From Rhizophagus irregularis (lineage: Eukaryota): a stretch of DNA of 64,000 bases. Of the stretch, positions 15,210-63,999 are shown one piece after another (the first letter of the stretch is position 1; each line of letters opens with the position of its first letter). Made by a program: the position numbers and the translations under genes. Where the stretch lies: positions 4,526,001 through 4,590,000 of the forward strand of contig NC_089433.1 in assembly GCF_026210795.1 (NCBI RefSeq), given 5' to 3'. The notes under the pieces were generated by a model that had not been told where the DNA came from, made no database searches, and was given only the letters and a program-made list of their open reading frames with translations.

Positions 15210-18200
15210 ATGGATCAATGTATCGACAAAGGTAATTATATAGCAGAATATATAATATAAAATTAGAAGTTAATAGGTTATCTTATAATTAAATAAAATT
15301 AATAATAACAGATAATGAAATTAATTATTATTTTTATTATATTCTTATGTAACTAAATAATTTATTTAATGATTAATAATACCATAGATTGTAAGTTATC
15401 AGTTACTTAAATTTTTAGTTTTTTTACTTTATTTATATTCAAATAACTAAATACTTTGTTTAAATAATTTTTTAATACTACAGCTAGTAAGTTACAATAC
15501 TTAATAATATTGTATTTAATATTACATTTATTTATTAATATTTTAATATAACTTAACTAATTATATTTTTAATTTAAATAAATAGATTGTAAGTGATATT
15601 TTAATTTATAGTAAATAGTATTTTTCTATTATATTTATATCTAACTAATTAATAATTGATAATACTACAGGGTGTAAGCTATATGATATCTATATTTCTA
15701 TATTATATAGTAATTTAAGCTAACTCAATTCTTTATTTAAAAATTATTTTGCAATTTCTTTTAGTGGGTAAGTTATTTATTTAATTCTATTATTACTTAT
15801 TGCTATAATAAACTAACTAAATTCTTTATTTAATAGATGGTAAGTTATAAATTAATTAACTAATTCTATTATTACTTATGGACATATATTTACATATAAT
15901 TTAAACTAACTAAATTAAAAATTATTTAAATAATATAGGATGTAAGTTATTTATTCTATTATTTATTGTTATAAGATTTGCATATAATTTAAACCAACTA
16001 AATTCTTTATTTAAAAATTATTTAAATAATATAGGGAGTAAGTTATTTATTTAATTCTATTATTACTTATTGTTATAATATTTACATATAATTTAAACTA
16101 ACTAAATTCTTTATTTAAAAATTATTTTAATAATATAGGTAGTAAGTTATTTATTTAATACTATTATTACTTATTGTTATAATATCTACATATAATTTAA
16201 ACTAACTAAATTCTTTATTTAAAAAATTATTTTATAGAAGGTAAATTAATTATTTAATTCTATTATTACTTATTGTTATACTAATATTTACATATATTTA
16301 AACTAACTAAATTCCTTATTTAAAAAATTTCTTTTAGCTAGTAAGTTATAAGTTATTTATTCAATTCTACTATTACTTATTGTTGTAATATTTAAATATA
16401 ATTCATATTAACTAAATTCTTTATTCAAAAAAATTATTTTGTAATTTCTTTTAGTGGGTAAGTTGTTACTTATTATTATAATATTTACATATAATTTAAA
16501 CTAACTAAATTTTTTATTTAATAGATCGTAAGTTATAAGTTATTTATTTAATTCCATTATTACATATTGTTATAATATTTACATATAATTTTAACTAAAT
16601 TCTTTATTTATAGCTCGTAAGTTATAAGTCATTTATTTATTTCCATTATTACTTATTTTTATAATATTTACGCATAATTTAAACTAACTAAATTCTTTAT
16701 TTAATAGATCGTAAGTTATAAGCCATTTATTTAATTCTATTATTACTTACTATTTTTATAATATTTACATATAATTTAAACTAATTAAATTCTTTATTTG
16801 GAAAATTATTTTGTGATTCTATTAGTTAGTAAGTTATAAGTTATTTGTTTAATTCTATTATTACTAATTGTTATAATATTTATATATAATTTAAATTAAC
16901 TAAATTCTTTATTTAAAAAATTATTTTGTAATTTCCTTTAGTGGGTAAGTTATTTATGTAATTCTATTATTACTTAATTGTTATAATACTTACATGTAAT
17001 TTAAACTAACTAAATTCTTTATTTACAAAATTATTTAAATAATATAGAGTGTAAGTTATTTACTTAATTCTATTATTACTTATTGTTGTAATAATTACAT
17101 ATAATTTAAACTAACTAAATTTTTATTTAATAGCCCGTAAGTTATAAGTTATTTGTTTAATTCTATTACTACTTGTTTTTATAATATTTATATATAATTT
17201 AGCTAATTAAATTCTTTATTTAAAAATTATTTTGTGATTTTTTTTAGTTAGTAAGTTATAAGTTATTTACTTAATTCTATTATTATTTATTATAATATTT
17301 ACATATAATTTAAACTAACTAAATAAAAATTATTTAAATAATACAGGGTGTAAGTTATTTATTTGATTCTATTATTACTTATGGTTATAATATTTACATA
17401 TATAATTTAAACTAACTAAATTATTTAATAGATCGTAAGTTATAAGTTATTTACTTAATTCTATCATTACTTATTGTTATAATATTTACTTATAATTTAA
17501 ACTGACTAAATTCTTTATTTAAAAAATTAACTAAATAATATAGGGTGTAAGTTGTTTATTTAATTATATTATTACTTATAATTACATATAATTGTAACTA
17601 ACTAAATTCTTTATTTAAAAAATTATTTAAATAATATAGGGTGTAAGTTATTTATTTAATTCTATCATTACTTATTTTTATAATATTTTAAACTAACTAA
17701 ATTTCTTATTTAATAGGTCGTAAGTTATAAGTTATTTTTAATTCCATTATTACTTATCGTTGTAATATTTATATAAAATTTAAACTGGCTAAATTTTTTA
17801 TTTTAATAGATAGTAAGTTATAAGTTGTTTATTTAATTCTATTATTGTTATAATATTTACATATAATTTAAACTAATTAAATTCTTTATTGAAAAAATTA
17901 CTATTTATATAGAGTGTAAGTTATTTACTAAATTCTATTATTATTTATTGTTGTAATATTTATATAATTAAACTAACTAAATTCTTTATTATTTTGTAAC
18001 TTTTTTTTAGTGGGTAAGTTATTTATTTAATTCTATTATTACTTATTGTCATAATATTTACATATAATTTAAACTAACTAAATTCTTTATTTAATTTGTA
18101 ATTTCTTTTAGCTGGTAAGTTATTTATTTAATCTATTATTATTACTTATTGTTATAATATTTACATATAATTTAAACTGACTAAATTTTTTGTTTAAAAA

Positions 18201-20640
18201 ATTATTTTGTAATTTCTTTTAGTTGGTAAGCTGTTTATCTAATTTTATTATTACTTATTGTTATAAATATTTACATATAATTTAAATTTAACTAAATTCT
18301 TTATTTAATAGATGGTAAGTTATTTACTTAATTATATTATTACTCATTGTTATATTATTTACGAATAATTTAAACTAACTAAATTCTTTATTTAAAAAAT
18401 TATCTAAATAATATAGAGAGTAAGTTATTTATTTAATTCTATTATTGTCATAGTAATATTTACATATAATTTAAACTTAATTAAATTCTTATTTAAAAAA
18501 TTACTTAAATAATATAGAAAGTAAGTTATTTATTTAGCTCTATTATTACTTATTGTTATAATATTTATATATAGTTTAAACTAACTAAATTCTTTATTTA
18601 AATAATATAGAAAGTAAGTTACTTATTTAATTCTATTATTACTTATTGTTATAATATTTACATATAATTTAAACTAATAAATTTCTTTAAAATTATTTAA
18701 ATAATATAGAGAGTAAGTTATTTATTTAATTCTATTATTACATATTGTTATAATATTTACATTTTAAATTAACTAAATTCTTTATTTAATAGATCGTAAG
18801 TTATAGGTTATTTATTTTATTCTATTATTACTTACAATATTTATATAATTTAACTAAATTTTTTATTTAAAAAATATAGCTCGTAAGTTATTTGTTTAAT
18901 TCTATTATTACTTATTGTTATAATATTTACATAATATCTAAACTAACTAAATTCTTTATTTAACAAATTATTTAAATAATGTAGCTCGTAAGTTATTTAT
19001 TTAATTCTATTATTACTTATTGTTATAATGTTTACATATAATTTTAGACTAACTAAATTCTTTATTTAAATAATATATATAGCTCGTAAGTTATTTATTT
19101 AATTCTATTATTACTCATTGTTATAATAATTACATATAATTTAAACTAACTAAATTCTTTATTTAAAAAAATTATTTAAATAACATAGCTTGTAAGTTAT
19201 TTGTTATTTCTATTGTTATATATTTTATATAATATTTATTTGTTAACTATTCTTTTATTTAAAAATTTCTATTACTTTAGTTGGTAAGTTGTGAAATATA
19301 ACTTATTATTATAAATATTTATACAAAAACTAAGATATATATTATCTTAAATTCCTATTTAAATTTTAGAGTAAGTGTTAATTTTAATCTTAAATATTAG
19401 TTTAAATTTTATTATAAACTTTAATATAATTTTAATTATTTAAATTTATAGATTTGGAAAAAGTGGAAATGAAATCATAGATGAAATTATTCTTGAAAAA
19501 AAGTTAAGATGGATTCCTTATAATAAATTTAATAATATTGAATTTCTTGATGAAGGAGGATTTGGTATTATATACAAAGCTATTTGGTTAAATAATAATG
19601 GAAATAAAGAAGTAATTCTTAAATGTCACAAGAATTTAAATGATAATTTAGTTGAATTTTTAAATGAAGTATGATGTTATGTTATTTTTTTAATTTAAAT
19701 TATAATTTATTTATATTAATATGTTTATTATTTTCTATAGTGGAAATATCATGGAAGCTGTTTAGATTCAAATGATATTATTCATTTTTATGGATTTACA
19801 AAAAATCCAGATACTTTGGAATATTTGGTAGTAATGGATTATGCAAACAAAGGTAATTTAAGAAGTAACTTAACAAGAATAATTGAAAGTGGTTGGGATC
19901 AAAAAGTTTTTATGCTGTATGGAATTATTTATGGACTTGGCTTTATACATGAACAAAATCTCATTCATTGTGATTTTCATGATGGCAATATTCTAAATCA
20001 TAATGAGGATAAAATTTATATTAGTGATTTGGGATTATGTCAACCCATAAAATCATCTTTAGAAGAGTCTAAAATTTGTGGCGTTATACCATTTATGGCA
20101 CCTGAAGTTTTAAGAGGCAAACCTTATACTCCAGCTAGCGATATATACAGTTTTTCTATGATTATGTGGGAATTTACATCTGGAGTACCACCATTTAATG
20201 ATAGAGCACATGATATTCAACTTAGTTTAAGTATTTGTAGAGGTGAACGTCCTGAAATTATTGAAAATACTCCACAATGCTATGTAGATTTGATGAAAAA
20301 ATGTTGGGATGGTGATCCATTAAAAAGGCCATCTTCTGGGAAAATTTTAGAAACTATTGAAAAATGGGTTTTATATCCTAAAGACAAGAAAATTGAAGAT
20401 ATTAACGAAGAATTAAAATGCAATATTATGGAATTTATAAATGCACCAATTGGGCATAATAATCTTGCTACTGAATCTCACTCACAAGCTTGCCATACAA
20501 GTCGCTTACTTAATTTTACTAGTAAACAATTGAATGAAATTCTTGAAAGTAAAAATTCACAAACTTATTATGCAACCCATTCTTCTACTGGTATAACTGA
20601 AGATTTGGATGATTGTATAATTGAAGATACAAGTAATTAG
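15210..20640 (+). CDS. Tyrosine-kinase-like kinase A with N-terminus encoded by 41 three-nt micro-exons plus one 1-nt exon
   Basis: Exon 1 15210-15231 (MDQCIDK+G); micro-exons 15388 to 19283; 1-nt exon 19370; exon 19452-19668 (FGKSGN..WIPY..EGGFG..VILK); exon 19741-20640 (HCDFHDGNIL, DLG, PFMAPE, DIYSFS). The kinase part is certain; the micro-exon part is inferred from splice signals and frame consistency. Confidence 0.85.
15232..19451 (+). repeat. Tandem array of ~70-120-bp homologous introns (array A)
   Basis: Unit consensus GTAAGTTATTTATTTAATTCTATTATTACTTATTGTTATAATATTTACATATAATTTAAACTAACTAAATTCTTTATTTAAAAAATTATTT...TAG, followed by a variable triplet. Confidence 0.95.
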
Positions 20641-22507
20641 GTATGTAAAGTGTATATAATATAGCTAGTGTAATATAAAATAAATTAATTACAAATTAAT
20701 TAATTTTATTTATTTATTATTTAGATATTAAAAAAATGAAAATTAACTAATTATTTGTGTTTTAAAAAAGATATAGTTTTTTTGTAATATTTGATATCAT
20801 GCATTTAACAAAAATTGTTCTTCACTTTATTCTTTTTAGGTTTATTTAAACACTAAGGCTAGAGTAGTAAAATATTTAAAAGATTCTTAGTTTGTAATTT
20901 AAATAATTCCTTTTTTTTTTTATATTTTATCCAAATATTAAATACATGTATTCTCTCTTTGAATTATTTAAACACTAGGACTAGAGTAGTAAATATTTTA
21001 CAAATTTCTTAGTTTGTAATTTAAATAAATCTTTTTTTTTCTACAAATTGTCAAATAACAAGTATATAAACCCATTTATACATAAATTAAAAATGAATAA
21101 TGTAAAATTTTTTATACTTATTTCAATAGCTGATTGTATTTAATTATATTGTTGACTTATTTTTAATATTATTCAAATATTTTGGTCAATATAGGAATTA
21201 CACCAAGGATGTCTACTGGATTATATAATGCATTAGTTATTTTTTTATTTTTTTTGATAAATCAAAGTCTGCTTGCTAACTTTATCCAATTTTGATGTAC
21301 AAGTACATTTATGTATGCTAAAATAAATATATATTTTATTTATTGCTTAATGTAATCGAATTAAAAAAATCAATATACAGTAAACTATTATGTTATTAAA
21401 TCTCAATAAATAATTTCCTCATTATGCAAACATTTTACAGCATTTACAAATTGAAGTGCTAATTTATATTTATCATTCCATTTGAGTTTATTAAAATTCT
21501 CTTTTAAATAGAATGTAATGATTCACAACAAGCATATTCCATAACCAAATAAATATTTGTTTTCCATTTTGAATTGGATAATATTTACATGGCAATTAAC
21601 TTCTCATTGCATTTTTAACTATATTTGTATGATATTAGCAGTATACACATATAAATATTACAAACCATTTTTAATATTTTACCTTATTAACAATTTTGTT
21701 AATTGTTAAGTAAATTAAATAGAAATATTAAAGCTATAACAATATAAGAATTTTTACAATTTGTACAAATACATTTTAAACTAAAAGACTCAGTGAAATT
21801 GAATTGGATTAATTTGGGATGATGGTTATGGTTATTATCTATTGCTTTTAAGATGTTAGTTTTAATATTATTACTATACTTATTATAATAAATTAATCGA
21901 AATAACTTCACTAAAACACCATTGGTGCTCAACGACATAGTAGTATGTGTTTTCACAAAAACTATGGTCTAAATAAAGAAGTTGCTTTAATTAAAATTGC
22001 TTAACACCCTCAAAGATGGCCGAAAAAAAGATTTAATTAGTACTATTCTTATTTTTTATGCTACAAATATTGCAAAATAAAAAAATTAGGAAAATATAAG
22101 CAAAGTATATGCTTGCAGCTAAGGTTGAATCTCAACTGTTTTTTAAATAGTTGCAAAATTACAACTATATATAAGACTTAGAGTTGTGGTTGTGAATTAT
22201 GAGTTGTAATTAGTAAGGCCTAGTTGCGACCACATTGCAGCATTAAGTACTATAATGTGAAATATAATTATTACATTAATTTTAACCAGTTTATTAATAA
22301 TATATAATAAAAAGTTAAGGTAACAAATAAAAAATGCATAAATCATTTTTAAGCATAAATAGTTTAAAATAATACTTAATATTGTTAGCATGAATATCTT
22401 TATTATAGTATACAATCAATAATGGACTGTAACAATGGTGAGTATTTAAAATTTTATCAAAAAGTAAATAAAGTGTAAGATGGCCATCTAACTTTTATAT
22501 ATAGTAT

Positions 22508-24115: not shown

Positions 24116-25010
24116 GTCCGATCATATTTTTGAAGAGTCATCTGGATTCAATCCGAATCTTTACAGCCAATCCGGATGATAATCCAGATCAATGGATTTA
24201 TCCTTTATTTAGGATCCATCCGGATTAATCCCATCCGATTTTAAGGATCCATCCTTTATTTCGGATCTATTCGGATTTATCCTAATCCGAAATTTAATGG
24301 ATGATCCGTATAAATGAATTTATTAATTAATTACTCCTATTATTTATAAAGTTTTCAAGTTTTCAACAAATAAATAATAAAATTGTTAATATATATAATA
24401 TAATTGAATTCATTGAATTAAAGAAATAGTAAAATATTTTATTAGACTAACAAGAAAAAATACATTATGAAACTTAATGAAAAATTTATTCTAATAAAAT
24501 TTCCTGAGTTTCACCATCCCATTCTTTTGCAAAAACTTCCATTGAACGAATATTTCTTTTTAAAAATAATATTTGTCCTACCAAATTTGTATCCAAATGC
24601 GTTCTTTTTACTGTAATTAGATTACTAGCATGCGAGAATAGTCTTTCACTTGACACGGAAGTCGCAGGAATTCCAAGATATTTGCGGGAAATTTGTGATA
24701 ATTTTGGAAAATTTTTGCACGAATTCGCCACCAATCTAGTGGATTTTCCTCCTCCAATGCAACCGGCATTGCTAAATAATTACTGACTTCATCAGTGGCT
24801 GCAAGTGATTTATCTTTTTTACTTTTAGTTTGACGGCGTTGACGGTATCCTTTCTGTGAGCGCAATGATGATTCTGCATCCGAAGAAGGCATAGTTATAT
24901 TTGATGGCTCTACTGCAGGTGAGTGCGGTGTTGAGTTATTGGATTCCATTTCATTAAACTCATCACGAAGCTTTCGAATTATTTTTTCCTTTTCATCATC
25001 TACGATTTCT
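24116..25010 (-). pseudogene. hAT transposase C-terminal (dimerisation domain) remnant with subterminal ATCCG repeats
   Basis: Frameshifted ORFs 24617-24949 (ENPLDWWR) and 24486-24734 (FPKLSQISRKYLGIPATSVSSERLFSHA); ATCCGG/ATCCGA repeats at 24116-24310. Confidence 0.85.
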
Positions 25011-26159
25011 TCCTTAACTGATTGGACTGATCAATTCCATCATACCATGTCCCAAAACAGGGCAAAGTCTTCTCATTCTCTGACTAAACGTCAATCTAGA
25101 GACATTCTTAAATCTGAAATGAATAGATTAGTCGCAGCTCACCCTAATATTTTAATTGTTGACAACCAATATCATTGTAATTCTCGTATAGTTTGCAATG
25201 TTAGGGGTAATTTAGTCCCCTTTGATCCTTATACATCAGATGACATGAAAAGTCTTGAAATGTGTTCTTTAAAACGTGATGTAAACATCAATTTGAATCT
25301 TTCTTTGCATCATAACATATCGAAATGGTCCGTCTAGATCTTTCCTTTGCTTATGATTCCAAGCAGGTGGGTCTGTCTAATAGTTCTAATACTAATTAAT
25401 TTTCTTTTTTTACAGTATAGAATTTATTACTTTTTCTTTTTGTTTTTTTTTGGAATCCTTTTATACATAGATTTATCTATTTCTGATACTTGTTTTTTTT
25501 TACAAGATAGTTTTTTTTACAATTAGAATAGTGTGAATCACTCCACTTATGACAGTATTTACAGGTGGCGACCTTGTGTCGAAAGAAAAATACGGATCGA
25601 GAAATCTTTTTTTTTTGGTTGTTGGGGTGGATGCCCTATTCCTTTGTTGGTCGTAGCTTAGGAAAAGACTAGGTTCTTTATATAATTAGAAGTTTGGGTC
25701 CGTTAGGTAATGGATGATAGTAAGAAGTAGGATAAAACCCTTTAGAGGGTATATGTTCTGTTTAATTGTCTGTCCAACTTCACATAAAATAAATAAATAA
25801 ATAAATAAATGATAGAATAAGAGAAATAGGTTGCGTGGAGAATATGCGAAGTTATAAATATAAGACGGTCAAGGCTAAACTTTGCTTCACAATAATCTAT
25901 GAAGAAATTTATAAGCGAGGGCCAATATAACAATTAAAAAGAACGGTCGTCAATATTTTTTCCGAATGTTTGATTCTAAGTTAACGTTCAGGCGTAAATA
26001 AAAAATTTTGTTGGCAAGAATGCGCAAATTTCTACAGGAAATGAGATAACAGATGGTGAAATTGTGAAAGAACATAACAAAAAATACGGAGCCTTTTTCG
26101 GAAAAGTTATTAGGATCACAAATTAAAATATATCTTAATATACTAACAACAAAAATGAT

Positions 26160-30926: not shown

Positions 30927-32367
30927 TCAAATTTTTTCACCATATAAAAACTTTCCAATGCGTTTGACGGTGTTATCATAAGCACCACCCCTACTTAATG
31001 CCCTAGTTGCCGCATAACCATGCATATTAGCATCATCTACCACGAATTCTGTTTTTATATTATTTTGTTGTAATTTTCCAATAAATGCTGTAACATCATC
31101 CAAAAAAATGTCAAAACTTCCAACGCAAGCAAATACTTTCGGTAAACCCAAAAGTTGACTTTCAAATAATGGAGAAATCATTGGACAAGATGGAAGAAGA
31201 TTTGAGTCGCCAATATATAAATTTGTGCTATTGTTGAACCAGGTAACATCTGTGATGTCATTCGAAGCATTGTCGATGAATGATCGAGTATTTCCTAGTC
31301 CCTGAAAACCCCAAAAAGAATTATAAAATGAATAATTAGCAAGAATACTACGTATAAAAACTATAAAATCATAAATTACTTACGGATACTGTAGGAGAAA
31401 GTAAAATAAGAGCAGCAGGAGGATCGGTATATGCTTGATTTATAAGATGTATTGCGCTAATTATAGCCAAATTTCCGCCTGAACTATCACCAGCTAAAAA
31501 AAAAAAAATATTTTTGAATAAAATTAATTTAGATTAAAATATTAATTTAAATAAATTATCAAAATATGTACCAAAAGCAATTTTGGATGGGCTAATTTTC
31601 TTTTCATTAATAAGCCATTGATAACACTCCAACATATTATCTCTAGCAGCTGGGAATGGATGCTCAGGCGCCAATACTATAAAATTAAAATTTCGATATT
31701 CGTTATAGATTATACATTCAAAAACATAATACGTTAATATTTAATTAACTTACGATAATCTAGTGATAAGATTTGTGTTCTAACGCCATAACTCAATTTC
31801 CATGCTTTAATCCAATCGATGTATGTATCTAAGAGAAATAAAGCGTCACCGAAAACGAAGCCACCACCTATTTCGTTCAAAACAAATTAATATTATTGAA
31901 AAATTTTTTACTTTTTTCGATTCTTTACTTACCATGAGCGTATAAAATAATCATATCAGCATCCTTTCCAATTTCTGCACGATCAACACCATCAGCAATT
32001 AAATATCCTTCCCATCCATCTTCTTCGTTACTCGTATTCAATTTCTTTACCCAATGATTTTGTCTTCCACGAGTGAATTTTTCAGATCCACTAAATAATT
32101 TTCTTAATAGCCATAGTGGTAAGTATAACTCAAAGGTTTTAAGGATGGTCGCTGTTATACGTTGATATAAGGATGGTGTCAAACATTCTTTATCAAAGAA
32201 TAAAGACGTGAAATATGCAAGAATTGCTAGTGGAATCTTAAATGCTAAAATAATACATATATAGAGTTGATTTAATTAATATCTCAGGAATAAATAATTT
32301 CTTATCGACATTTTTATACTTTACCCAAGACTAAGGTACACAAAAGTACAGATAAAATGAAATCCAT
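30927..32367 (-). CDS. Alpha/beta hydrolase, HSL family (paralogue of 2880-4406)
   Basis: ATG 32367 (MDFILSVLLCTLVL); same intron positions as the paralogue; HGGGF, GDSSGGN, DIFLDD, MHGY; stop at 30927. Confidence 0.88.
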
Positions 32368-41159: not shown

Positions 41160-41674
41160 AACTAATTTGTTGAATTACTTATTTTCGTAACTCAAAAAAA
41201 AAGCGAAAAGCAAGAAAAAGGATTTCCGTTTTATTTACGTTTATTTATACTTAATTTCATCGGATTTAAAACTCCGTCATTCAAATGGATTATTAACATA
41301 TAATTTTAATACAGTAGTATTTTAAAATATAATTATTTGATAATCTTAATCTCATGAGTCATGGTCGATAAAAGGAAAATCTCATAATGTACTACTGTGA
41401 ATTAAAATTAAAAGATAGAAAGAGTATATTTTTATTTTTGTGTCATTCATGGAAATATTCTTTATTTGTTTAAAAATGAATGCGAACGTTTAAAGTAGTT
41501 AGATTCATGTTGATCAAAACAAACAACTTTTGCTTTTAGTATGATCTACAACACGTTTTTCATATGCGTTTGTAACGAGAGTTACGTACTGATAGGGGTA
41601 TTGTTTATTTTTCGTGTCCATTGTTACAAAATGTTACAATAATAGTATTCACAGTTTTTCGAAAACAATAGGTA

Positions 41675-45828: not shown

Positions 45829-47105
45829 ATTAAAATCTATAAGATTGAATTAAAATAAAAGGTTAAAATGCTTAATTAATTTCTCATTTTTCAAAAATTG
45901 AATTATAATAATTTTAATATTACCTGGGTGTACTGAGAAAATAATTTTGTCTGAAAAAAAATTATAAAAATTCGTTAAAAAATTACTTAACCTATTTAAT
46001 TATAACTTATACTGATCCGATAAGTCTATTATATTATATACGGTTACATCATCATACAATTTTTTATACATCATGATATACAATAAATATAACCAAACAA
46101 TTCTTTTGATTTGATATAAATAAATTTTCCAAATAAATAATTTTGACCCGAAATCATAATAAAAATAATATAAATACTAACCTTATTAAGATGAAATAAA
46201 TAACTTCAAAACTTATTTATTTTAAATAATTAATTCATCTGAGAAAATCATAAGATACGTCGTTTCCTGTATGGCGCAGCGAAGTTTTAAGCTAGCTGTT
46301 CTAGCTATAAAAGAACTAATTAAAACATGAAACATACAAATATAGTACGCCTTTTTTTATAATTTAAATTTTTCCGAAAAAAAAAAAAGAAAGAAATGAA
46401 TCAATAAAAAAAATTTTTTTTTTTTTTAAGGAAAAAAGAATTATTTTTCTTTATAAAATATGAATGTATGCAAAATAAATAACAATCAGGTATATAAGGT
46501 ATTACTAAGCATTTTCATTATTTAGCCGAATAAAGTCTGCGCCACGAAGATCATTAATACTGCAGTACCACCCATTTTCTTACACGATTGAGATTATAAA
46601 ATCCGGAAATTATTCGTTCCGCAAGTCATAAACGTAGTACAAAATGGAGAATGATTTGTGTTACGAAGAACGAAGTAATGTCTTTTTGGTTGAACAAGGT
46701 TTTTTATTGACCTGCACATAAAAAGCTAATTTCTTTCCCTCTACCTGGTTTGAAGTCTTCCATATTTTATCCACGTACATATTTTAAACTTCAAATTTTT
46801 TTTTTTTCATGATTGCGAAAAGTTTAATTTGAGCATTTTGAAGTGTTACGAAGGATAATCGATTTACTTTGTGGCTAAAATGTACTACGCTGCATGAATA
46901 CAAAATTGGCATATAAATAAGACGATACATTTCCGGATTACGTTTTCTTAAAAAAAAAAACTTTCATTTTTTTATCTTTATCATTTACCTTCTTTTTTTT
47001 TTTATAAAAAAAATTACTATCCTTAACTATCTTTTTTTTTAGAATTTAGAAATCAAAATAAAGATTAAATAAAGAATATATACAATATATATAAGAATAT
47101 ATAAC

Positions 47106-48713
47106 ATGCCAGAAATATACGACACAGTAAAATCATTTAAACAACTATCTTGCGATTTCCTAAAAATATTAGATCAAGAAGAAACGTTTGATGTCATTAT
47201 TTACGTTGGCGATGAATCTAGTTGTGAAACATTTAAAGCTCATTCAATCATTTTAAAAACTCGCTCAGAGTATTTTAGAGCCGCATTATCGGCTGCATGG
47301 AGTAAAAAGAAAGAGGATGGTTTTTACGTAATTGATTTGCGTGGAATGAACATACCGCAAGCTATATTTGGTCATGTGCTCTTGTATGTATGGAATGATT
47401 TATTTTTTTATTTTGTTGCTTTTTTTTTTATTTTTTTGATCTTTTCCTTTCGAAAAGTGTTCTTTTTTTTAATAAAAGAGAAATAAGATATTTAAATTCT
47501 AAATAATTCAAAATTTAATATTAATTAATTTTTTATTATTATTTTTTATAGTTACGTATATGGAGCATATTTAAATTTAGAAAAAGTAGGGGTTTCAGAG
47601 AAATTACAATTATTAAAAGCAGCAGACGTATTAATGATGGATTCTTTTGTAGATTATATGGAAGCCGATTTAATACGAAATGAAAATACTTGGATCAACG
47701 AAAAAAGTAGCGAGGTGCTTTATGTAGCTTTACAAATTTCAAGATGTAAAGAGTTAGTTTCATTGTGCAATAATGCAATACTTCGACACCCAAAAGCTTT
47801 TGTAAGCTCCAAGGAATTTTTATTTCTCCCACATGATTATATGGTTGGCTTATTAGAACGAGACATATTTGGATTGGAGGAAATTGATATATTTGCAGCA
47901 GTGATAATGTGGGGAATAAATAATACTCCTGGAATTTCGTTGGTAGATGATTTTTCAACTTGGACATCAGACCATATAGCAACATTACAATCAAATGTGA
48001 TTCAATTACTTTCTTTAATAAGATTTTTCCAAATGGAACCCGATGATTTTATTAAAAAGGTTGGACCTTTAACTAAAGTATTCATGCCAGAATTATATGA
48101 TCAAGTTATTGAATATCATTCGAACACACAATTTCAATTTATTTACGATATTTTACCTTTAAGATTAAACAGCACAATTATAAAAGAGAAAGAGGAACCT
48201 GCGTTAATATCATATTGGATTCTTCATCCTGATACTGCGGATGATACACCAGAAAAAAATCCTTACACGACATTCGATAAAGTCCCTTTTGATTTTCACT
48301 TGATATTTAGATGCGGTGGTGCAGAATTGGGTGAACAAAAATGGCGCGAACAATGTTATAATCAAGGACCAACTGTTACGATAATAAGAACAAAAAATCA
48401 AAATGAAGATGAAGCTGTATTTGGTGGATATAAAAGTATAAGTTGGTCAACAGAAAATCAAGAAATGCGAATCGGTGGTGATGGATTTATATTTGGTTAC
48501 CTCTGGCAACAAAGAAAGTTATTGCTGCCCTGGATGTTAAGAGTTAATAATCATTTAGATGTTGACATGTTTTTAGGAGATGGTATTGAAGTCTTTATTG
48601 ATTTTAGGCATGGTCAGAAATTATTGGCTCATGCTAATGGATTTCAAGATTTGGAAGAGACAATTGAAGAATTAGAGGTATTTAGGGTTGTTCAGAAAAA
48701 ATTTGATGAATGA
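47106..48713 (+). CDS. BTB/POZ-BACK-TLDc domain protein
   Basis: Exon 1 47106-47383 (DVIIYVG..FKAHSIILKTRSEYFRAAL); intron 47384-47551; exon 2 with EEIDIFAAVIMWG, LIRFFQM, CYNQGPTVTII, VFGGY, EELEVFRV. Confidence 0.9.
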
Positions 48714-51700: not shown

Positions 51701-51735
51701 ACACTAAAAGTTTGTGATCTTTTTAATAAAAAAAA

Positions 51736-53069: not shown

Positions 53070-54326
53070 TTAATTATTATTTGTATTTAAATATCTCCTC
53101 TGATGATTATTCCATAATAAATCACATATTGCATTTCTTATAGCATTACCTTCTGATGTTTCATTAACATTTGTTTCACTATTTACATCAGTTCCTGTAT
53201 CATGATATTGTTCTTCTGGTGGTAAAAAATCGCGTCTTTCTTCACAAATATTATGGAGTATACAACAAGTAGTTATCATATGTGGTATTATTTCAAATGA
53301 AACTTCTAAACTATGAAGAAGACATCTCCATCTACCCTTTAATAAACCAAAAGCTTGTTCTACTTTGATTCTTGTTTGTGAATGTTTACAATTGAAATAT
53401 GTTTGTTTTTGAATTAATCCTCTACCTATATCTTTATAAGGAACTATTAACCAACTAAGATTCGGATATCCTCCATCACCTAATATGTATTTATTATTAA
53501 AAGTTGTTACTAAATTATTAAACTTATTATATAGATTAGAATTTACTAAAATTCTACTATCATGTGTAGAACCTGGCCAACCAACACATATATCTAAAAA
53601 ACTTGTTTTATGGTCAACTACTGCTTGTAAAACAATTGAATAAAATCCTTTTCTATTAAAATAATCTACAGGAAATAGATGAGGTGCTTTAATTGGTATA
53701 TGACTACCATCAATAGCTCCAATAACATTAGGAATTCTTCCAGTACCTTTGAATCCATTTGTAATTTCATTAATTTCTGATTCTGTATTTGGAAAAACAA
53801 TTTTTTCCGCTAGAAATTTTGTAACTATTACATTAATAAAATCTCTTAATGCATAACTAAAAGTTGATTCTCCCATTCCAAACCTATTACCTATAGACCT
53901 AAAACATTCTCCAGTAGCAAGAAACCATAATGATGCACCAACCTTTTGTTCCCATGCAAGTCCAACTATACCAGGTCCTGTAATTTCTCTTCTTAAATGT
54001 GGTATTATTTCACAGCATAACCATTCGAATGTAGACCTGGTTAACCTAAAATGTCTTTTAAATTCAAAATCTTGCATATTTAAACATATTTCATTAAACC
54101 AATACTGAGATATTGATCTATTTAATCTTCTTAAATTGATGCACTCATTAATTTCTATTCTATTAAGTTGTAAATATAGCAAGTTTAAAGGTAAAATGTT
54201 AAAATTTTCTTCCTCTTCTTCTTGTTCAGTTTGATAAGTAGCAATTAAATTTTCTTCAAATTCATTATATTTAATAAGTATAATAATTATTAATATACAA
54301 ATTGAAATTTGGAATTCCCTGTTCAT
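53070..54326 (-). CDS. Harbinger (HARBI1-like, DDE_Tnp_4) transposase
   Basis: Open 418-aa ORF with FKRHFRL, GAIDGSHI, YFNRKGFYS, GWPGSTHDS, LGDGGYP, VEQAFGLLKGRWR, CCILHNIC. Confidence 0.95.
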   Translation of the reverse strand: MNREFQISICILIIIILIKYNEFEENLIATYQTEQEEEEENFNILPLNLLYLQLNRIEINECINLRRLNRSISQYWFNEICLNMQDFEFKRHFRLTRSTFEWLCCEIIPHLRREITGPGIVGLAWEQKVGASLWFLATGECFRSIGNRFGMGESTFSYALRDFINVIVTKFLAEKIVFPNTESEINEITNGFKGTGRIPNVIGAIDGSHIPIKAPHLFPVDYFNRKGFYSIVLQAVVDHKTSFLDICVGWPGSTHDSRILVNSNLYNKFNNLVTTFNNKYILGDGGYPNLSWLIVPYKDIGRGLIQKQTYFNCKHSQTRIKVEQAFGLLKGRWRCLLHSLEVSFEIIPHMITTCCILHNICEERRDFLPPEEQYHDTGTDVNSETNVNETSEGNAIRNAICDLLWNNHQRRYLNTNNN

Positions 54327-54550
54327 TACTGAGAAAATAATATGTAATTATAAAAATTTATGTAAAATTTTAAAAGAAAGTACGAAAAAAAAAATTTTTA
54401 AAGCATAACGGTAAATCATTAATCTAATGTAACACAAAAATTTGTGAATCAAGATTGAAACGTTAATCTCAATTTCAAGCTGATCTCAATCCCAATCTCA
54501 ATCCCAATCTCAATCACAGGTTTTGTGAAGACCCCCATTGTGCGGTAATA

Positions 54551-57500
54551 AATCAAGCATGGCTAGACAAAATGTCACCCTGTGTCTGACATTTTACCTG
54601 TTTATGCTTGATTTTCATCTGTCCCGTGCTTGATATTTATCTGTACGTGCTTGATATTTTATCTGTACGTGCTTGATGTTTTATCTGTATGTGCTTGATA
54701 TTTTATCTGTCACGTGCTTGTTGTTTTATCTGTACATGATGCTTGATGTTTTTATCTGTTCGTGCTTGGCATTTTTATCTGTCCGTGCTTGAGGTTTTAT
54801 CTATCTGTACTTTTGTCCAATTGTATTTGATTTTAATTTTATCTTGTCAAAAATTAGTTTCTTTGTCAGCATAGGGGTGATATTTTGTCAATCACATGTT
54901 TTTTAAGTTTAGCATAGTTTTTACACGAAGAATTTTTTTTTATTTTATTGGCTTTTTTTTATAAAACAATTTTTGTAGAGAATTTTTATTTTTAATATAG
55001 GCAAAGGTTTTTTTTGATAAAATTCTTTTGGAATTTTTTTTTAATAAAAAGACTTTTTTTTGATAAAAAATTTTGTTAGAGAATTTTTTATTGATAGGGA
55101 AATTTCTGAGTTTTTCTTCGATGGATAATTTCGTTAAAAAATTTAAATTTCATTGGAGATTTTTTTTTTAATAAGATTTTTTTTTTTGATAGAGAATTCA
55201 TTGAGAATTGAGAACTTTTTTTTTTTGTAGAATTTTTATAATAGGAAAGATTTTTTTTGATAAAATAATTTTGTCAGAAACTTTTTTAGCAAATGAGATT
55301 TTTTTTTGATAGAGAATTTCGTTAAGAATTTTTTTTTTAATAGGAGGGAGTTTTCCTTGATAAAGAATTTCTTTTGGGAATTTTTTTTAATAGGTGAAAG
55401 TTATTTTTTATGGAGAATTTTATTAGAGAATTTTTTTTAATAGGGGGATTGTTTTTGATAGAGAATTTTATTAAAGAATTTTAATTAATAGGAAGATAAA
55501 TAATTTCGCTGAGAATTTTTTTTTTAATGGGTAAAATTTTTTTTTTTTTGATAGATCATTTCATTAGTAAATTTTTTTAACAGAGAAGATTTTTTTTTGA
55601 TTAAGAATTTCATTAGAGAATTTCTGGTTGAAAAGTTTTTTTATTTTTTTGATGGAGAATTTTGTTAGAAGTCTCAATAGAAAATTTATTGAAAATAGTT
55701 TTTTTTAATAAGGGTATCGAGAATTTTGGCTTGATATTTTTTTTTTTAATAAAGAATTTCATTAGATAGAGAGCTTTTTTTTAAAAAAATTGATTGAAAA
55801 TTTATTAAATTTTACAATTTTAATAAATTTTTTTTTTTTTTAATGGATATTATAAAATAAATGGTTTGCTGGTAGTTAAAGCTCTGCATGAGCTGGCTCG
55901 AGCTGAGCCAAGGCATAGCTCACGCTCAGCTCGAAAATTAAGAGAGCAGAGTCCGCAATGAACTGAACCACGGCAAATATTGGCTCAAGCTTTTTGAGCC
56001 AAGCCGAACCATAATAAATCCTGGCTCAAGCTGAGCTGGACTTGAGCGGGCTCGAGCTGGCTTGAGCTTTACCTAAAAAAAAAGAGAGAAATGGCGTTAA
56101 TGATGTTTTATAACACCATTACACAGCCACACACTCACCAAACAACACCTACCGCATATTCCATAGCCGGAGAGATGAAAAGGAGTGATGGGAGACGAAA
56201 AGGAGCGATGGGAGATGAAAAAAATTTTCTTACAAAATTTTTTATCAAAAAAAATCTTTTTATTATTGCCGTTTTCAAAATTACTGACAAATTCCGATTT
56301 GCGAGGTTTGATATATGATTTTTTGTATAACAAAAGTGAATCACATTTTTACGCGAATTTTTAATATTTTCATGTCAAATTTTTTTGTGAATCATCAAAT
56401 TCAAGATAAAATGTGTACCAACGCAAAATTTTAGCATATATTTAATATAAAAATTTTGGACTTTTACTATGCAGATATCATTTATTATAGTTATTTATAT
56501 ATAAAAATAAAGTGAATCACATTTCTGCATGAATTTTTAATATTTTCATGTCAATTTTTTTTTGTGAATCATCAAATTCAAGTCAAAATGTGTATCAACG
56601 CAAAATTTCAGCATATATTTCATATAAAAATTTTGGACTTTTACTATGTTAATATTATTTATTGCAATTATTTACATATAAAAATAGTGACATAGAAAAG
56701 TCCAAATTTTAAATGAAATATATATTGAAATTTTGCCTTGATATACACAATGTCTTGAATTTGATGATTCACAAAAAAATTTTAATATAAATATATTAAA
56801 AATTGATGTAGAAATGTGATTCACTTTATTTTTATATATAAATGACTGTAATAAATGATATCTGCATAATAAAAGTCCAAAATTTTTATAAGAAATATAT
56901 ACTGAAATTTTGTGTTGATACACATTTTGACTTGAATTTGATGATTCACAAAAAAAATTTGACATGAAAATATTAAAAATTCATGCAGAAATGTGATTCA
57001 TTTTATTTTTATATATAAATAACTACAATAAATGATATCTACATAATAAAAGTCCAAAATTTTTATAAGAAATGTATACTGAAATTTTGCGTTGATACAC
57101 ATTTTGACTTGAATTTGATGATTCACAAAAAAAATTTGACATGAAAATATTAAAAATTCAGAAATGTGATTCACTTTATTTTTATATATAAATGACTATA
57201 ATAAATGATATCTGCATAGTAAAAGTCCAAAATTTTTATATTAAATATATGCAAAATTTTGCGTTGATACACATTTTATCTTGAATTTGATGATTCACAA
57301 AAAAAATTTGACATGAAAATATTAAAAATTCGCGTAAAAATGTGATTCACTTTTGTTATACGAAAAATCATATATCAAACCTCGCAAATCGGAATTTGTC
57401 AGTAATTTCGAAAACGGCAATAAAAAAAATTTCAAAAGAAATTCTATCCTATCAAACAAAGCCTTTGCCTATATTAAAAATAAAAATTCTCTACAAATTT

Positions 57501-57928
57501 GTTTATTAAAAAAAGCCAATAATAAAAAAAATTATTCGTGTAAAATTTAAAAAAAAAAAAAATTTTTAAAACTACGCTAAACTTAAAAACATGTGATCGA
57601 CAAAATATCAACCCTGTACTGACAAAGAAACTAATTTTTGACAAAGATAAAATTATCGAGTATAGTTGGATTAAATCAAACACAGTTGGACAAAAACATC
57701 AAGCACAGACGGACAAAAATATCAAGCACAGATGGATAAAAACATCAAGCACGTACAGATAAAATATCAAGCACATACAGATAAAACATCAAGCACGTAC
57801 AGATAAAATATCAAGCACGTACAGATAAATATCAAGCACGGACAAATGAATATCAAGCATGAACAGGTAAAATGTCAGGCACGGTGTAACATTTTGTCAA
57901 TCCATGCTTGATTCGGCTTGCCATACTG
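54551..57928. mobile_element. Large foldback (long inverted repeat) element with internal tandem subrepeats
   Basis: 54551-55040 is the reverse complement of ~57430-57912, including ~21-bp TGCTTGATATTTTATCTGTAC repeats. 56260-56690 mirrors ~56690-57425 (~177-bp units). Right end CGGCTTGCCATACTG|TA; the matching GGCAAGCCGA lies at 51359, left of the Harbinger. Confidence 0.8.
55877..56071. mobile_element. Small MITE-like insert with GAGC/GCTC repeats
   Basis: TAAAGCTC...GAGCTTTA ends; GC-rich relative to flanks; no clear TSD. Confidence 0.4.
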
Positions 57929-58138
57929 TAACACCTGCTGTACCTGCTGTACCTGCCGTAAAATGTGGCATACTTTGTCAAGTATGGCTCGAAAATCGAA
58001 ATAGTGATCACATAATAAATTTTGCATAAATATTATTACCATATTTACTCATACTAATAGGGCGTTTAATAAAAAAAAGAAAAAAATAGATTTTTTTTTT
58101 TTATTCAGTTAGGGAATATTTTGATATAATAAATAGTA

Positions 58139-61100
58139 ATGGGTCAATGTATTGGTAAAGGTAAAAATCGTATATATAGTATGAACATTTGATACAATAA
58201 GAATTTTAAAATTTTTAACAAATTGACAATATAATAAAACTAGTTTCTGGTAGTGTTAATAAAAAAAATGGCTCTGAAGAATCTGAAGGAAGTACCGAGG
58301 AATATGAAGGTATATTAAACAAGCTGAAATATTAAAATACTTATCTATAAATAAACCTATATATAATATATAACTAACTAAATTATATAAAATCATATTA
58401 AATAATTTAGCTCGTAAGTTAATAGGTTGTTTTATAATTAAATAATAACGGAATTACTTATTATTTTTACTATATTCTATGTAACTAAATATACTATAGT
58501 TTGTAAGTTATCAGTTATTTAAATTTTTAGTTTTTTACTTTATTTATATTTACATAATATTCAAATAACTAATAAATTCTTTGTTTTAAATAACTAATTA
58601 ATTATATTACAGCTGGTAAGTTATAATATTATATTTAATATTATATTTATTTATTAATATTTTACTATAATTTAACTAATTATACTCCTAATTTAAATAA
58701 ATAGATTGTAAGTAATATATTCAATTTATAGTAAATACCTTTCTATTATATTTATATCAACTAATTAAGAATTAATAATAATTCAGGGTGTAAGTTATAT
58801 GATGTCTATATTTCTATTATTTATATAATTTAAGCTAAATTCTTTATTTAAAAAATTATTTGTAATTTCTTTTAGTTGGTAAGTTATTTATTTAATTCTA
58901 TTTTACTTATTGTTATAATATTTACATATAATATAAACTAACAAAATCCTTTATTTAAAAAATTATTTTAATAATATAGGGAGTGAGTTATTTATTTAAT
59001 TCTATTATTACTACTTCTTTACAGAAACTTCAAGAATGGCTTAATGCGCAGTAACTGCATATATGTAATTTCTTTACAATTGCATAATGTGGTCACTATG
59101 TATTTATAACGCAGTTACCACGCATTAAGCCATCGCTACGATCTTGAAGTTTCTGTAAAGTTATTGTTATAATATTTACATATATTTAAACTAACTAAAT
59201 TCTTATTTAAAAAATTATTTAAATAATATAGAGAGTGAGTTATTTATTTAATTCTATTATTACTTATTATAATAATATTTACATATAATTTAAACTAACT
59301 AAATTCTTTATTTAAAAAATTATTATATAGATGGTAAGTTATTTATTTAATTCTATTATTAATCATTGTAATAATATTTACATATAATTTAAATTAACTA
59401 AATTTTTTATTTAAAAAAATTATTTAAATAACATAGCTCGTAAGTTATTTATTTAATTCTATTATTACTTATCATTATATAATTTAAGCTAAACTAACTA
59501 AATTCTTTATAAATTATTTTGTAATTCTTTTAGATTGTAAGTTATAATTTATTTATTTAATTCTATTATTACTTATTGTTATAATATTTATATATAATTT
59601 GAACTAACTAAATTTTTATTTAAAAAATTATTTAAATAATATAGGGAGTAAGCTATTTATTTAATTATACTATTCTTATTGTTATAATATTTACATATAA
59701 TCAAACTAAACCAACTAAATTCTTTATTAAAAAATTATTTTGTAATTTCTTTTAGATTGTAAGTCATAATTATTTATTTAATTCTATTATTACCTATCAT
59801 AATAATATTTACATATAATTTAAATAAATTCTTTATTTAAAAATTATTTTTGTAATTTCTTATACTAGTTGGTAAGTTATTTATTTAATTCTGTTATTAT
59901 TTATTGTTAAAATATTTACATATAATTTAAACTAACTAAATTCTTTATTTAAAAAATTATTTTATAGATGGTAAGTTATTTATTTAATTCTATTATTACT
60001 TATTATTATAATATTTACATATTATATAAACTACTAACTAAATTCTATATTTAAAAAATTATTTAAATAATATAGGGTGTAAGTTATTATTTATTTAATT
60101 TTATTATTACTTATTGTTATAATATTTACATATAATTTAAACTATCTAAATTCTTTATTTAAAAAATTATTTAAATAATTTAGGGTGTAAGTTATTTATT
60201 TAATTCTATTATTACTTATTGTTATACTAAATTCTTTATTTAAAACTTATTTTGTAACTTTTTTTAGTTAGTAAGCTATTTGATTAATTCTATTATTATT
60301 TGTTGTTATAATATTTGCATATAATTTAAACTAACTAAATACTTTATTTAAAAAATTATTTTATAGATGGTAAGTTCATATTTAATATCTATTATTATTA
60401 TTTGTTATAATATTTACGTATTATTTAACTAACTAACTAAATTTATTATTTAATAGATCGTAGGTTATAAGTTATTATTTAATTCTATTATTACATATTA
60501 TTATAATATTTACATATAATTTAAATTAACTAAATTCTTTGTTTAATAGATCGTAAGTTATAACTTATAAGTTATTTATTTAGTTCTATTATTACTCATT
60601 GTAATAATATTTGCATATAATTTAAACTAACAATTCTTTATTTAAATTATATAAATATATAGGGTGTAAGTTATTTATTTAATTCTATTATTACTTATTG
60701 TTATACTAAATTCTTTATTTAAAACTTATTTTGTAACTTTTTTTAGTTAGTAAGCTATTTGATTAATTCTATTATTATTTGTTGTTATAATATTTGCATA
60801 TAATTTAAACTAACTAAATACTTTATTTAAAAAATTATTTTATAGATGGTAAGTTCATATTTAATATCTATTATTATTATTTGTTATAATATTTACGTAT
60901 TATTTAACTAACTAACTAAATTTATTATTTAATAGATCGTAAGTTATAAGTTATTATTTAATTCTATTATTACATATTATTATAATATTTACATATAATT
61001 TAAATTAACTAAATTCTTTGTTTAATAGATCGTAAGTTATAACTTATAAGTTATTTATTTAGTTCTATTATTACTCATTGTAATAATATTTGCATATAAT

Positions 61101-63999
61101 TTAAACTAACAATTCTTTATTTAAATTATATAAATATATAGGGTGTAAGTTATTTATTTAATTCTATTATTACATATTGTTATAATATTTACATACATTT
61201 TAAACTATCTTAATTCTTTATTTAAAAAATTATTTTGTAATTTCTTTTAGTTGGTAAGCTATTTATTTAATTCTATCATTGCTTATTGTTATAATATTTA
61301 CATATAATTTAAACTAACTAAATTCTTCACTTGAAAAATTATTTAAATAATATAGGGTGTAAGTTATTTATTTAATTCTATTATTACTTTATATTGTTAT
61401 AATATTTACATTTGTTTAAACTAACTAAATTCTTTATTTAATAGATCGTAAGTTATAAATTATTTATTGCTTACATTATTACTTATTGTTATTATTATAA
61501 TATTTACATATAATTTAAATTAACTAAATTCTTTATTAAAAAATCATTTAAATAATATAGAGAGTAAGTTATTTATTTAAATCTATTATAGTATTATTAC
61601 TTATTATTATAATATTTACATATAATTTAAACTAACAAATCCTTTATTTAAAAAATTATTTTAATAATATAGGGAGTGAGTTATTTATTTAATTCTATTA
61701 TTACTACTTATGATATTTACATATATTTAAACTAACTAAATTCTTATTTAAAAAATTATTTAAATAATATAGAGAGTGAGTTATTTATTTAATTTTATTA
61801 TTACTTATTATAATAATATTTACATATAATTTAAACTAACTAAATTCTTTATTTAAAAAATTATTATATAGATGGTAAGTTATTTATTTAATTCTATTAT
61901 TAATCATTGTAATAATATTTACATTTAATTTAAATTAACTAAATTCTTTATTTAAAAAAATTATTTAAATAACATAGCTCGTAAGTTATTTATTTAATTC
62001 TATTATTACTTAGTATCATTATAATATTTACATATAATTTAAGCTAAACTAACTAAATTCTTTATTTAAAAAATTATTTTGTAATTTCCTTTAGATTGTA
62101 AGTTATAATTTACTATTTATTTAATTCTATTATTACTTATTATAATAATATTTACATATAATTTAAACTAACTAAATTCTTTATTTAAAAAAATTATTTT
62201 ATAGATGGTAAGTTATTTATTTAATTCTATTATTACTTATTGTTATAATATTTACATTTAATTGAAACTAACTATTTAATTTCCTTTAGATGGTAAGTTA
62301 TTTATTTAATTCTATTATTACTTATTGTGATAATATTTACATATAATTTAAACTAACTAAATTTTTATTTAAAAATTATTTAATAATATAGCTTGTAAGT
62401 TATTTGTAATTTTATTGTTATATATTTTATATTTATTTGTTAACTGTATTCTTTCATTTAAAATTTCTATTACTTTAGTTGGTAAGTTGTGAAATATAGC
62501 TTATTATTATTATATATATTTGTACAAGAACTAAGACATATATTATCTTAAATTCCAATTTAAATTTTAGAGTGAGTGTTAATTTTAATCTTAAATTTTG
62601 TGTCAATTTTATTATGAACTTTAATTATTTAAATTTATAGATTTGGAAAAAGTGGAAATACAATTATAGATAAATTTATCCTTGAAAAAAGATTAAAATG
62701 GATTCCTTATAATAAATTTAAAAATGTTGAATATCTTAATGAAGGAGGATTTGGTACTATATACAAAGCTATTTGGTTAAAAAATAATGAAGATAATAAA
62801 GAAGTAATTCTTAAATGTCATAATAATTTAAATGAAAATTTAAATGAATTTTTAAATGAAGTATGATAGTATATTATTTATTTTTTTCAATTTGAATTAT
62901 AATTTACTTATATTAATATATTATTATTTTTTATAGTGGAAATATCATGAAAGATGTTTAGATTCAATTGAAATTATTTATTTTTATGGATTTACAAAAG
63001 ATCCAGATACTTTAAAATATATGGTAGTAATAGATTATGCAAACAAAGGTAATTTAAGAGGAAACTTAACAAGAATAATCAAAAATAATTGGGATCAAAA
63101 ATTATATATGTTGTGTGAAATTATTTCTGGACTTAATAGTATACATGAACAAAATCTTATTCATTGTGATTTTCATGATGGTAATATTTTAAATCATAAT
63201 GAGGATAAAATTTATGTTAGTGATTTAGGATTATGTCAGCCTGTAAAATCATTTTTGAAAGAGTATAATATTTATGGTGTTGTACCATTTATGGCACCTG
63301 AAGTTTTAAGAGGCAAATCTTATACTCCAGCTAGTGATATATATAGTTTTTCTATGATTATGTGGGAATTTACATCTGGTACGCCACCATTTAACAATAG
63401 AGCACACGATATTCAACTTAGTTTAAGTATTTGTAAAGGTGAACGTCCTGAAATTATTGAAAATACTCCACAATGTTATGTAGATTTAATGAAAAAATGT
63501 TGGGATGAAGATCCATTAAACAGGCCATCTTCTAAGGAAGTTTTAAAAACTATTATAAAATGGATTGGTCTTCCTTCTAACAAGAAAATTAAAGATATTG
63601 ATAAAGAATTAAAATGTAATATTATGGAATTTATAAATGCACCAATTGGGCATAACATTCTTACTACTGAATCTCATCCACAGGCTTGTTATACAAGTCG
63701 CATACTTGATTTTACTAGTAAAAAATTGAATGAAATTCTTGAAAGTGAAGATTTGAATAGTTGTATAATTAAAGATTTGAAGTCATTAGGTATGTAATAT
63801 AGTATATATAAAAATTAATCTTGCAAATCATTTTTGTGAAATTAATTTATTATTTAATATTAAAACAGATAAAAATACTAGTAAAAAATTGAATGAAATT
63901 CTTGAAAGTGAAGATTCACAAACTTATTATGCAAGCCATTCTTCTACTGGCATAACTGAAGAGTTGGATGATTGTATAATCAAAGATACAAGTAATTAG
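58139..63999 (+). CDS. Tyrosine-kinase-like kinase B with N-terminus encoded by 40 three-nt micro-exons plus one 1-nt exon
   Basis: Exon 1 58139-58160 (MGQCIGK+G); exon 2 58244-58309 (66 nt); micro-exons 58411 to 62481; 1-nt exon 62571; exons 62641-62860, 62937-63789, 63869-63999 (TAG). Close paralogue of kinase A. Confidence 0.85.
58310..62640 (+). repeat. Tandem array of homologous introns (array B)
   Basis: Same unit consensus as array A; every unit is GT(A/G)AG...CTAAC/T...AG followed by a triplet. Confidence 0.95.
59017..59160. mobile_element. 144-bp MITE inside an array-B intron
   Basis: Perfect 19-bp TIR CTTTACAGAAACTTCAAGA, continued by ATGGCTTAATGCG..TAACTGC; TT on both flanks; absent from the duplicated unit at ~61676-61772. 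Confidence 0.85.

Follow-up and report, generated by a model that had tools for sequence, protein, structure and literature searches.

Arrays of about forty consecutive three-base exons in two tyrosine-kinase-like genes of Rhizophagus irregularis

How can two genes that are much alike at both ends carry unrelated coding sequence in between, cut into exons of three bases? The question is raised by a 64,000-nucleotide stretch of the Rhizophagus irregularis genome (RefSeq assembly GCF_026210795.1, contig NC_089433.1, positions 4,526,001 to 4,590,000 of the forward strand), called here the window, which is 24% G+C and has no N. It holds two tyrosine-kinase-like (TKL) genes, A and B, in which about 40 consecutive three-base exons precede a kinase domain; this observation is confirmed as real. 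A first inspection made from the letters only (the sequence-only reading) had proposed that the micro-exon peptides are hypervariable between the paralogues while the kinase domains and array edges are conserved, and that single codons are shuffled in DNA on top of possible splicing diversity.

Layout and splicing of the arrays

Gene A has 41 three-base exons between 15388 and 19283, then a one-base exon at 19370; gene B has 40 between 58411 and 62481, then a one-base exon at 62571. The introns of both genes are bounded by GT..AG without exception (83/83), the donor is GTAAGT in 69 of 81, and a CTRAY branch motif occurs in 57 of 83. Array introns measure 67-115 nt, the exceptions being the first intron of A, which is fused, and an intron of B that bears an insert resembling a miniature inverted-repeat transposable element (MITE). 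The long form of the unit motif matches 22 times in the window as against 0 times in 100 shuffles; pattern matches at 1347 and 1460 were judged to be chance. Exon 1 ends in phase 1 in both genes and all micro-exons are in phase 1, so that each cassette contributes to two adjacent codons and not to one whole codon, a codon being composed of the final base of one cassette and the first two bases of the following one. The phase-1 frame is open through both arrays and continues into the kinase. The micro-exons account for about 10% of the protein, the remainder being kinase.

Splicing of gene A was followed in the contigs of four runs (X2, X4, X5 and X7, out of 24 runs listed) placed on 15000-20900. 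Contigs of X2, X5 and X7, which come from different studies, join 15231 to 19452 at GT..AG ends, with depths of 82, 79 and 12. The joint contains 124 letters that match no contiguous part of the window and are identified by their length, which equals 41x3+1. Since the insert is exactly 124 letters, the dominant mRNA of gene A retains all 42 micro-exons; that gene A is spliced in full, as the insert length shows, is close to certain. One 849-nt contig of X2 runs from exon 1 through the insert into both kinase exons and lacks the 72-nt intron between these two. X5 contains an additional joint, 15231 to 19455, at a depth of 9 and with undefined content, for which a paralogue or an isoform is possible. 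The splicing diversity entertained by the sequence-only reading is so far not borne out: the only bridging form of known length has every exon, and no skipped form of gene A was seen in the contigs of the four runs, contigs being prone to drop rare forms. In gene B, in-frame splicing of the micro-exons is predicted from the sequence and is very probable. A satellite DNA or an assembly artefact was ruled out for gene A by the predicted insert length in spliced contigs and by a public gene model that has 37 of the 41 triplets in order. An intron seemingly starts directly after the stop of gene A (20641-20724), a partly masked region that contigs of X2, X4 and X7 skip.

The features of the two genes, with the support for each, are the following.

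15085..15209, forward: upstream region of gene A (5' untranslated region) common to gene B; by alignment, with a spliced contig covering from 15177
15210..15231, forward: gene A exon 1, ATG, 22 nt, ending in phase 1, Asp at position 2; GT..AG joint from 15231 in 3/4 runs
15263..15277, forward: dead first unit of gene A, its exon and donor GT deleted relative to B unit 1; by alignment
15388..19283, forward: gene A array, 41 three-base exons with homologous introns of 67-115 nt; spliced-contig insert of 124 letters, and model P0121 with 37/41 triplets in another frame
19370..19370, forward: gene A one-base exon, completing the frame into the kinase; required for 124 = 41x3+1
19452..19668, forward: gene A kinase exon 1 (pre-kinase helix, G-loop, catalytic Lys); joint, and fold of paralogue P0099
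19741..20640, forward: gene A kinase exon 2 (PF07714/PF00069, HCD non-RD loop, stop); joint 19668-19741 in 3/4 runs
58139..58160, forward: gene B exon 1, beginning Met-Gly-Gln-Cys, a predicted lipid-anchor motif
58244..58309, forward: gene B exon 2, 66 nt, predicted acidic linker; comparable acidic stretches in annotated paralogues
58411..62481, forward: gene B array, 40 three-base exons, splicing predicted; model P0002 with 19/40 triplets in order, in another frame
58879..59536, forward: B units 7-11, a block copy of units 32-36 (61564-62097), with the five exons shared and 97-100% of aligned columns identical
59017..59160, no strand: MITE-like palindrome inserted in B intron 8 and lacking in the block copy
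60187..61144, forward: five-unit tandem duplication, 479 nt x2, 478/479 identical
62571..62571, forward: gene B one-base exon
62641..62860, forward: gene B kinase exon 1
62937..63797, forward: gene B kinase exon 2 (PF07714/PF00069, HCD non-RD loop)

The public models of both genes contain array triplets as exact ordered subsequences, 37 of 41 in P0121 (gene A) and 19 of 40 in P0002 (gene B), read as whole codons, and both models join the array to kinase exon 2, losing the N-lobe. This phase-0 reading, in which an exon equals a codon, was ruled out because exon 1 ends in phase 1 and because the RNA runs on into kinase exon 1, an exon missing from both models. Beyond the stop of gene B, at 63860-64000, the C-terminal tail of the kinase recurs in a form like the tail of A, and P0002 splices into it.

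Conserved edges, divergent cores and copied cassettes

Comparison of A with B upheld the contrast that the sequence-only reading had drawn. The kinases are identical at 281 of 356 aligned residues (79%), and their DNA at 197/217 and 761/858 aligned columns; the 200 nt 5' of the ATG together with exon 1 agree in 165 of 196 columns. At the 5' edge of the arrays the best cross-gene matches pair A2 with B3 (0.77), A3 with B4 (0.83), A4 with B5 (0.84) and A5 with B6 (0.87), and at the 3' edge A41 with B40 (0.88) and A42 with B41 (0.90), the first introns and last units thus being orthologous as supposed; A40 is marginally closer to B10 (0.95) than to B39 (0.92). The numbering is offset by one unit because A has lost B's first unit and lacks a 66-nt exon 2; in A the first intron corresponds to the first two introns of B, fused through a 5-nt deletion of exon and donor. 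The cores, by contrast, show no such correspondence. Their introns are no more alike in colinear pairs (0.742) than in any pair (0.736), and alignment of the core peptides scores 24, not better than that of shuffled ones (p=0.077). In ordinary sequence the two genes have diverged at 5 of 56 four-fold sites and at about 6-7% of aligned columns in ordinary introns.

Gene B holds direct traces of cassette copying. Its tandem copy of five units is identical at 478 of 479 nt, and a non-adjacent five-unit copy matches in 97-100% of aligned columns and has the same exons; given the divergence between A and B, both copies postdate the A/B split. The MITE-like element in B intron 8 (59017-59160) is 144 nt long with 19-nt terminal inverted repeats. 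The corresponding intron 33 of the block copy is without it and keeps a few extra bases beside the site and a small deletion, a possible excision footprint.

For the older units, Mantel tests were run on 56 core units, with edge units and 10 younger copies excluded. The acceptor side is correlated with its own exon (r=0.21, p<0.001) and with the donor side that follows that exon (r=0.24, p<0.001). Between the two sides of an intron middle r falls to 0.03 (p=0.25), and between an exon and the following exon it is 0.007. Linkage across the exon with none across the intron middle suggests that the heritable unit is likely exon-centred, exchanges falling in the conserved intron middle. On the unit tree, which is weakly resolved, there are 18 A/B label changes against a shuffled mean of 17.5, and a B-only clade is rejected (p of the approximately unbiased test 1e-16, from few columns). 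Units average about 74% identity in the cores, reaching 100% in the block copies, and are as alike between the genes (0.74) as within A (0.75) or within B (0.73); with these identities and the mixed tree, concerted evolution inside each gene is not seen. As judged from sequence, the intermixing of A and B units fits either a reshuffled ancestral common pool or exchange between paralogues.

Taken together, the post-split block copies, the exon-centred linkage and the mixed tree support the earlier proposal of DNA-level shuffling between homologous introns, from which the diversity of the arrays appears to arise. Its idea of single-codon shuffling needs correcting in the unit, since a phase-1 cassette spans parts of two codons.

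Selection, the kinase and what the peptide may do

What distinguishes the three coding bases from their surroundings is their variability. Over all pairs of units the exon positions differ at 0.70/0.56/0.76 and flanking columns at 0.16; for nearest neighbours, picked on held-out columns, the values are 0.41-0.46 and 0.13. Within a cassette the variability of the exon letters is 3-4.7 times that of the flanks. Neither core contains a dead unit. Exon base 3, the first codon position, is near uniform (G15 A15 C14 T12) amid introns of 12.5% GC. At the wobble position 76 of 81 cassettes have G or T and 4/81 have A, as against A at 34/85 kinase four-fold sites (T40 A34 C8 G3). Random pairing of the 81 cassettes yields all 20 amino acids, the richest being Arg, Tyr, Asp, Asn, His and Gly, with Trp at 4.7%; stops amount to 3.7%, and to 7.4% with kinase-like wobble bases. 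We take this codon pool to resemble the NNK codon scheme.

In Pfam the long exons of A and B match kinase families only (PF07714, at 116 bits versus a cut-off of 23.1, and PF00069, likewise passed), with no NACHT or ankyrin, and the G-loop, catalytic Lys, HxD, DxG and APE motifs are present. The catalytic loop is HCD (non-RD) in A, in B and in 171 of 186 motif-bearing relatives. The other two kinases of the window, TKL kinases on the reverse strand at 6792-10703 and 39701-41174, are of the HRD type and have Cys-rich N-termini instead of a micro-exon array; the one at 6792-10703 has a very long repeated Cys-rich exon with no Pfam match. The accessible text of PMC8463890 links non-RD kinases to innate immunity and notes that EFR also has Cys at the Arg position before the catalytic Asp. 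The fold predicted for paralogue P0099 is a kinase (predicted template modelling score 0.79) with a confident helix at residues 7-15 just ahead of the N-lobe, and its nearest solved fold is plant CTR1. On this model, the variable peptide would attach directly before the pre-kinase helix. Proteins B, P0038, P0082 and P0131 start with Met-Gly-Gln, which presumably fits the myristoylation motif, and A and P0113 start with Met-Asp.

This led to the proposal, which we consider somewhat better than even, that spliced cassette arrays, shuffled at the DNA level, equip each non-RD kinase paralogue with its own peptide of about 40 residues, likely setting recognition. The short introns would be removed successively, leaving 42 micro-exons in frame, as judged by length in A and predicted in B. 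Blocks of five units have been copied within B since the A/B split, and further exchanges would take place in the conserved intron middles; that cassettes are copied and exchanged in DNA, by unequal crossing-over or gene conversion, is highly likely. Exchanges so placed would always keep the frame while rewriting two adjacent residues per cassette. Selection would then favour varied exon letters while keeping splice sites, which is somewhat more probable than not. The resulting peptide, ahead of the pre-kinase helix of an intracellular kinase that would be lipid-anchored in some paralogues, may serve as a docking or bait segment, variable in sequence, for proteins of non-self origin from another isolate, a microbe or the plant. 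This putative role in recognition is tentative; the non-RD kinases, the excess variation of exon letters and the precedent of Tuber, discussed below, are compatible with it. A bolder form, a natural NNK-like peptide library placed before non-RD kinases and rewritten, with the frame left intact, by recombination among paralogues and alleles and possibly also among the nuclei of one mycelium, as a code for self/non-self or microbe sensing, seems doubtful.

Several points weigh against this proposal. The runs were classed as RNA by guess, though the joints fall at GT..AG ends; the 124-letter insert was matched to the micro-exons by length and not by letters; the bridging contig is absent in one of the four runs (X4); and RNA support covers gene A, the splicing of B being a prediction. 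An assembly error could account for the 479-nt tandem copy. Stop avoidance was discarded as proof of selection, being too weak: an outcome without stops arises in 6.5% of shuffles for A and in 22% for B. Because of their common ancestry the units do not give independent wobble counts, and the G/T wobble bias could stem from splice-site preferences. Intron constraint or homogenisation could lower the variation of the flanks, although ordinary A/B introns diverge about as fast as four-fold sites, so that strong intron constraint is not an obvious cause. Gene A, with Asp at position 2, has no myristoylation motif. Among 30 proteins looked up by cluster, a single pair, P0142 and P0171, is near-identical and has annotated strings; the two share 273 of 275 kinase residues and their strings differ mid-way, which is suggestive of allelic variation, yet both fit one 33-unit array as subsets.

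Other explanations must be set beside it. The array could be mainly a device for alternative splicing, as reported for the nank NOD-like receptors (NLRs) of Tuber, exon skipping giving many isoforms, perhaps limited to some stage. Symmetric three-base exons preserve the frame, a stop is created by only one of 79 single-exon skips (0/40 in A, 1/39 in B), the extra joint of X5 could be an isoform, and there is precedent in the accessible portions of PMC4986451, PMC9815663 and PMC13449251. The pool rate of 3.7% leads one to expect about 3 stops in 79 skips, so that one is a weak signal, and the extra joint may derive from a paralogue. Moreover, the only form of known length, found in three of four runs, has all 42 exons, and the X2 contig is unbroken over the array. 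We therefore regard splicing as the main purpose as improbable.

It is also conceivable, if unlikely, that the array is a by-product, an intron with three bases duplicating in tandem in a tolerant linker, where selection would purge only stops and broken splice sites and the peptide would have no specific role. The peptide does adjoin an acidic low-complexity linker, unit counts vary among paralogues, A has lost one unit and exon 2, a MITE lies within one intron, and tandem repeats recombine without needing a purpose. Such drift does not readily account for exon letters that vary 3-4.7 times above their flanks, nor for a base 3 of about 50% GC in surroundings of 12.5%, and the pace of ordinary introns again speaks against intron constraint as the obvious cause; besides, many paralogues, in at least two species, maintain some 4 kb of DNA and 42 splicing events to encode 41 residues. 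That the introns serve expression control through delay, export or decay of the mRNA, the peptide being secondary, we consider most improbable: 42 sequential splicing steps would slow maturation and some intronic contig depth, though low, is present over parts of the array, but neither the excess variation of exon letters over flanks nor the use of all amino-acid classes is predicted by it.

Relatives, neighbours and comparison with known systems

Kinase exon 2 of gene A is 100% identical to an R. irregularis DAOM 197198 protein, and the nearest relatives are Rhizophagus proteins. Its 90% protein cluster (19741-20640) consists of DAOM records only and the best matches of other series are about 80% identical; this paralogue may thus be strain-specific or fast-evolving. 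Look-alike protein clusters are mostly kinases of Mucoromycota. A composition filter flagged 16 of 233 fetched proteins, of which 2 were discarded by eye, 2 are A and B themselves, and 12 are other models (7 DAOM, 3 R. irregularis of other accession series, 2 R. diaphanus) with strings of 10 to 64 letters. Judged by likeness, these strings probably derive from arrays, apparently mis-framed. Annotated strings of 47, 48 and 64 letters set lower bounds for unit number, so the near-equal counts remarked on in the sequence-only reading hold for A and B (41 versus 40) without reflecting a rule: other models would have at least 47, 48 and 64 units, and a fixed array length of about 40 is ruled out, given the inferred array origin of the strings. 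Two protein searches returned no transcript-derived protein with a correctly framed peptide.

Searching with the array motif found one locus in metagenome contigs (L001), truncated at the array end, and none in viral contigs. It encodes a divergent kinase of the same family with the same one-base exon and array end. One of its units, near 2120-2160 of the locus (about 125-165 when counted on the reverse strand), has its acceptor region in duplicate and contains a dead donor as well as a dead acceptor; jointly these could make up a frame-keeping 36-nt exon.

Elsewhere in the window lie a DDE_Tnp_4 (PIF/Harbinger-like) transposase open reading frame (53070-54347, reverse), a transposase-like remnant with no Pfam match, hAT-like by eye (24617-25030, reverse), paralogous alpha/beta hydrolase (Abhydrolase_3) genes at 2880-4406 (forward) and 30927-32275 (reverse), and genes for a UDP-glycosyltransferase (36042-38299), an F-box protein (44152-45849) and a BTB/BACK protein (47073-48713). 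Upstream of gene B, 177-nt tandem repeats form two blocks of opposite orientation (56333-57354), and 22-23-nt repeats occur at 54605-54802 and 57675-57883.

A run of 42 consecutive exons of at most three bases, all in the main mRNA of gene A, is an extreme gene structure, and it is hosted by a model arbuscular mycorrhizal (AM) fungus whose public models of both genes miss or mis-frame it. The arrangement would offer a route to free-peptide evolution by recombination, the homology residing in introns and the payload being three bases. It may also bear on the role of the very large AM-fungal kinase expansion and on how AM-fungal isolates distinguish self from non-self. As defined candidates that can be typed by PCR, the arrays would allow genotypes to be compared with fusion compatibility and with responses to hosts or microbes. 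No description of such arrays in AM fungi turned up in literature searches, which covered openly available main texts only.

Both genes belong to the expanded Glomeromycota TKL family (PF07714), and the kinase expansion of R. irregularis is well known; the accessible portions of the papers describing them (PMC6123716, PMC3886924, PMC10234402, PMC4219462) make no mention of micro-exons. Within this family, A and B represent a non-RD (HCD) subfamily with an N-terminus made from micro-exon cassettes.

The comparisons that follow draw on the accessible parts of the sources cited. The nank (NACHT-ANK) NLRs of Tuber melanosporum contain 3-bp mini-exons, with alternative splicing as the reported mechanism (PMC4986451, PMC9815663, PMC10197012, PMC13449251). 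Like A and B, they have codon-sized exons by the dozen and form part of an expanded family of candidate non-self sensors in a mycorrhizal fungus. However, they are ascomycete NLRs with NACHT and ankyrin domains and carry the mini-exons in a C-terminal sensor, whereas the arrays described here are N-terminal in a Glomeromycota TKL kinase; and the dominant mRNA of gene A has all exons, the evidence pointing to cassette copying in DNA more than to the alternative splicing reported for Tuber. The micro-exon genes of Schistosoma (PMC10526429) similarly have runs of very short exons, down to 3 bp, and variable peptides. Their exons range over 3-81 bp and make up most of the coding sequence, their introns reach 5 kb and their proteins are secreted, in contrast to the uniform 3-nt exons, homologous introns of about 100 nt and kinase segment found here.

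The nearest analogues at the DNA level are two systems described in PMC13449251. The repeats of high internal conservation in Podospora NWD/HET NLRs are likewise near-identical units in which a few positions are hypervariable, and unequal crossing-over and ectopic conversion are presumed to add, remove and shuffle the units; in A and B, unlike in those repeats, the conserved recombining part is the intron and the coding payload is three bases, so that no scaffold residues are imposed on the protein. The brown-algal NB-ARC-TPR and ROCO receptors, also candidate immune receptors, have one repeat per exon and exchange between paralogues, but there each exon is a whole TPR or LRR repeat and not the size of a single codon.

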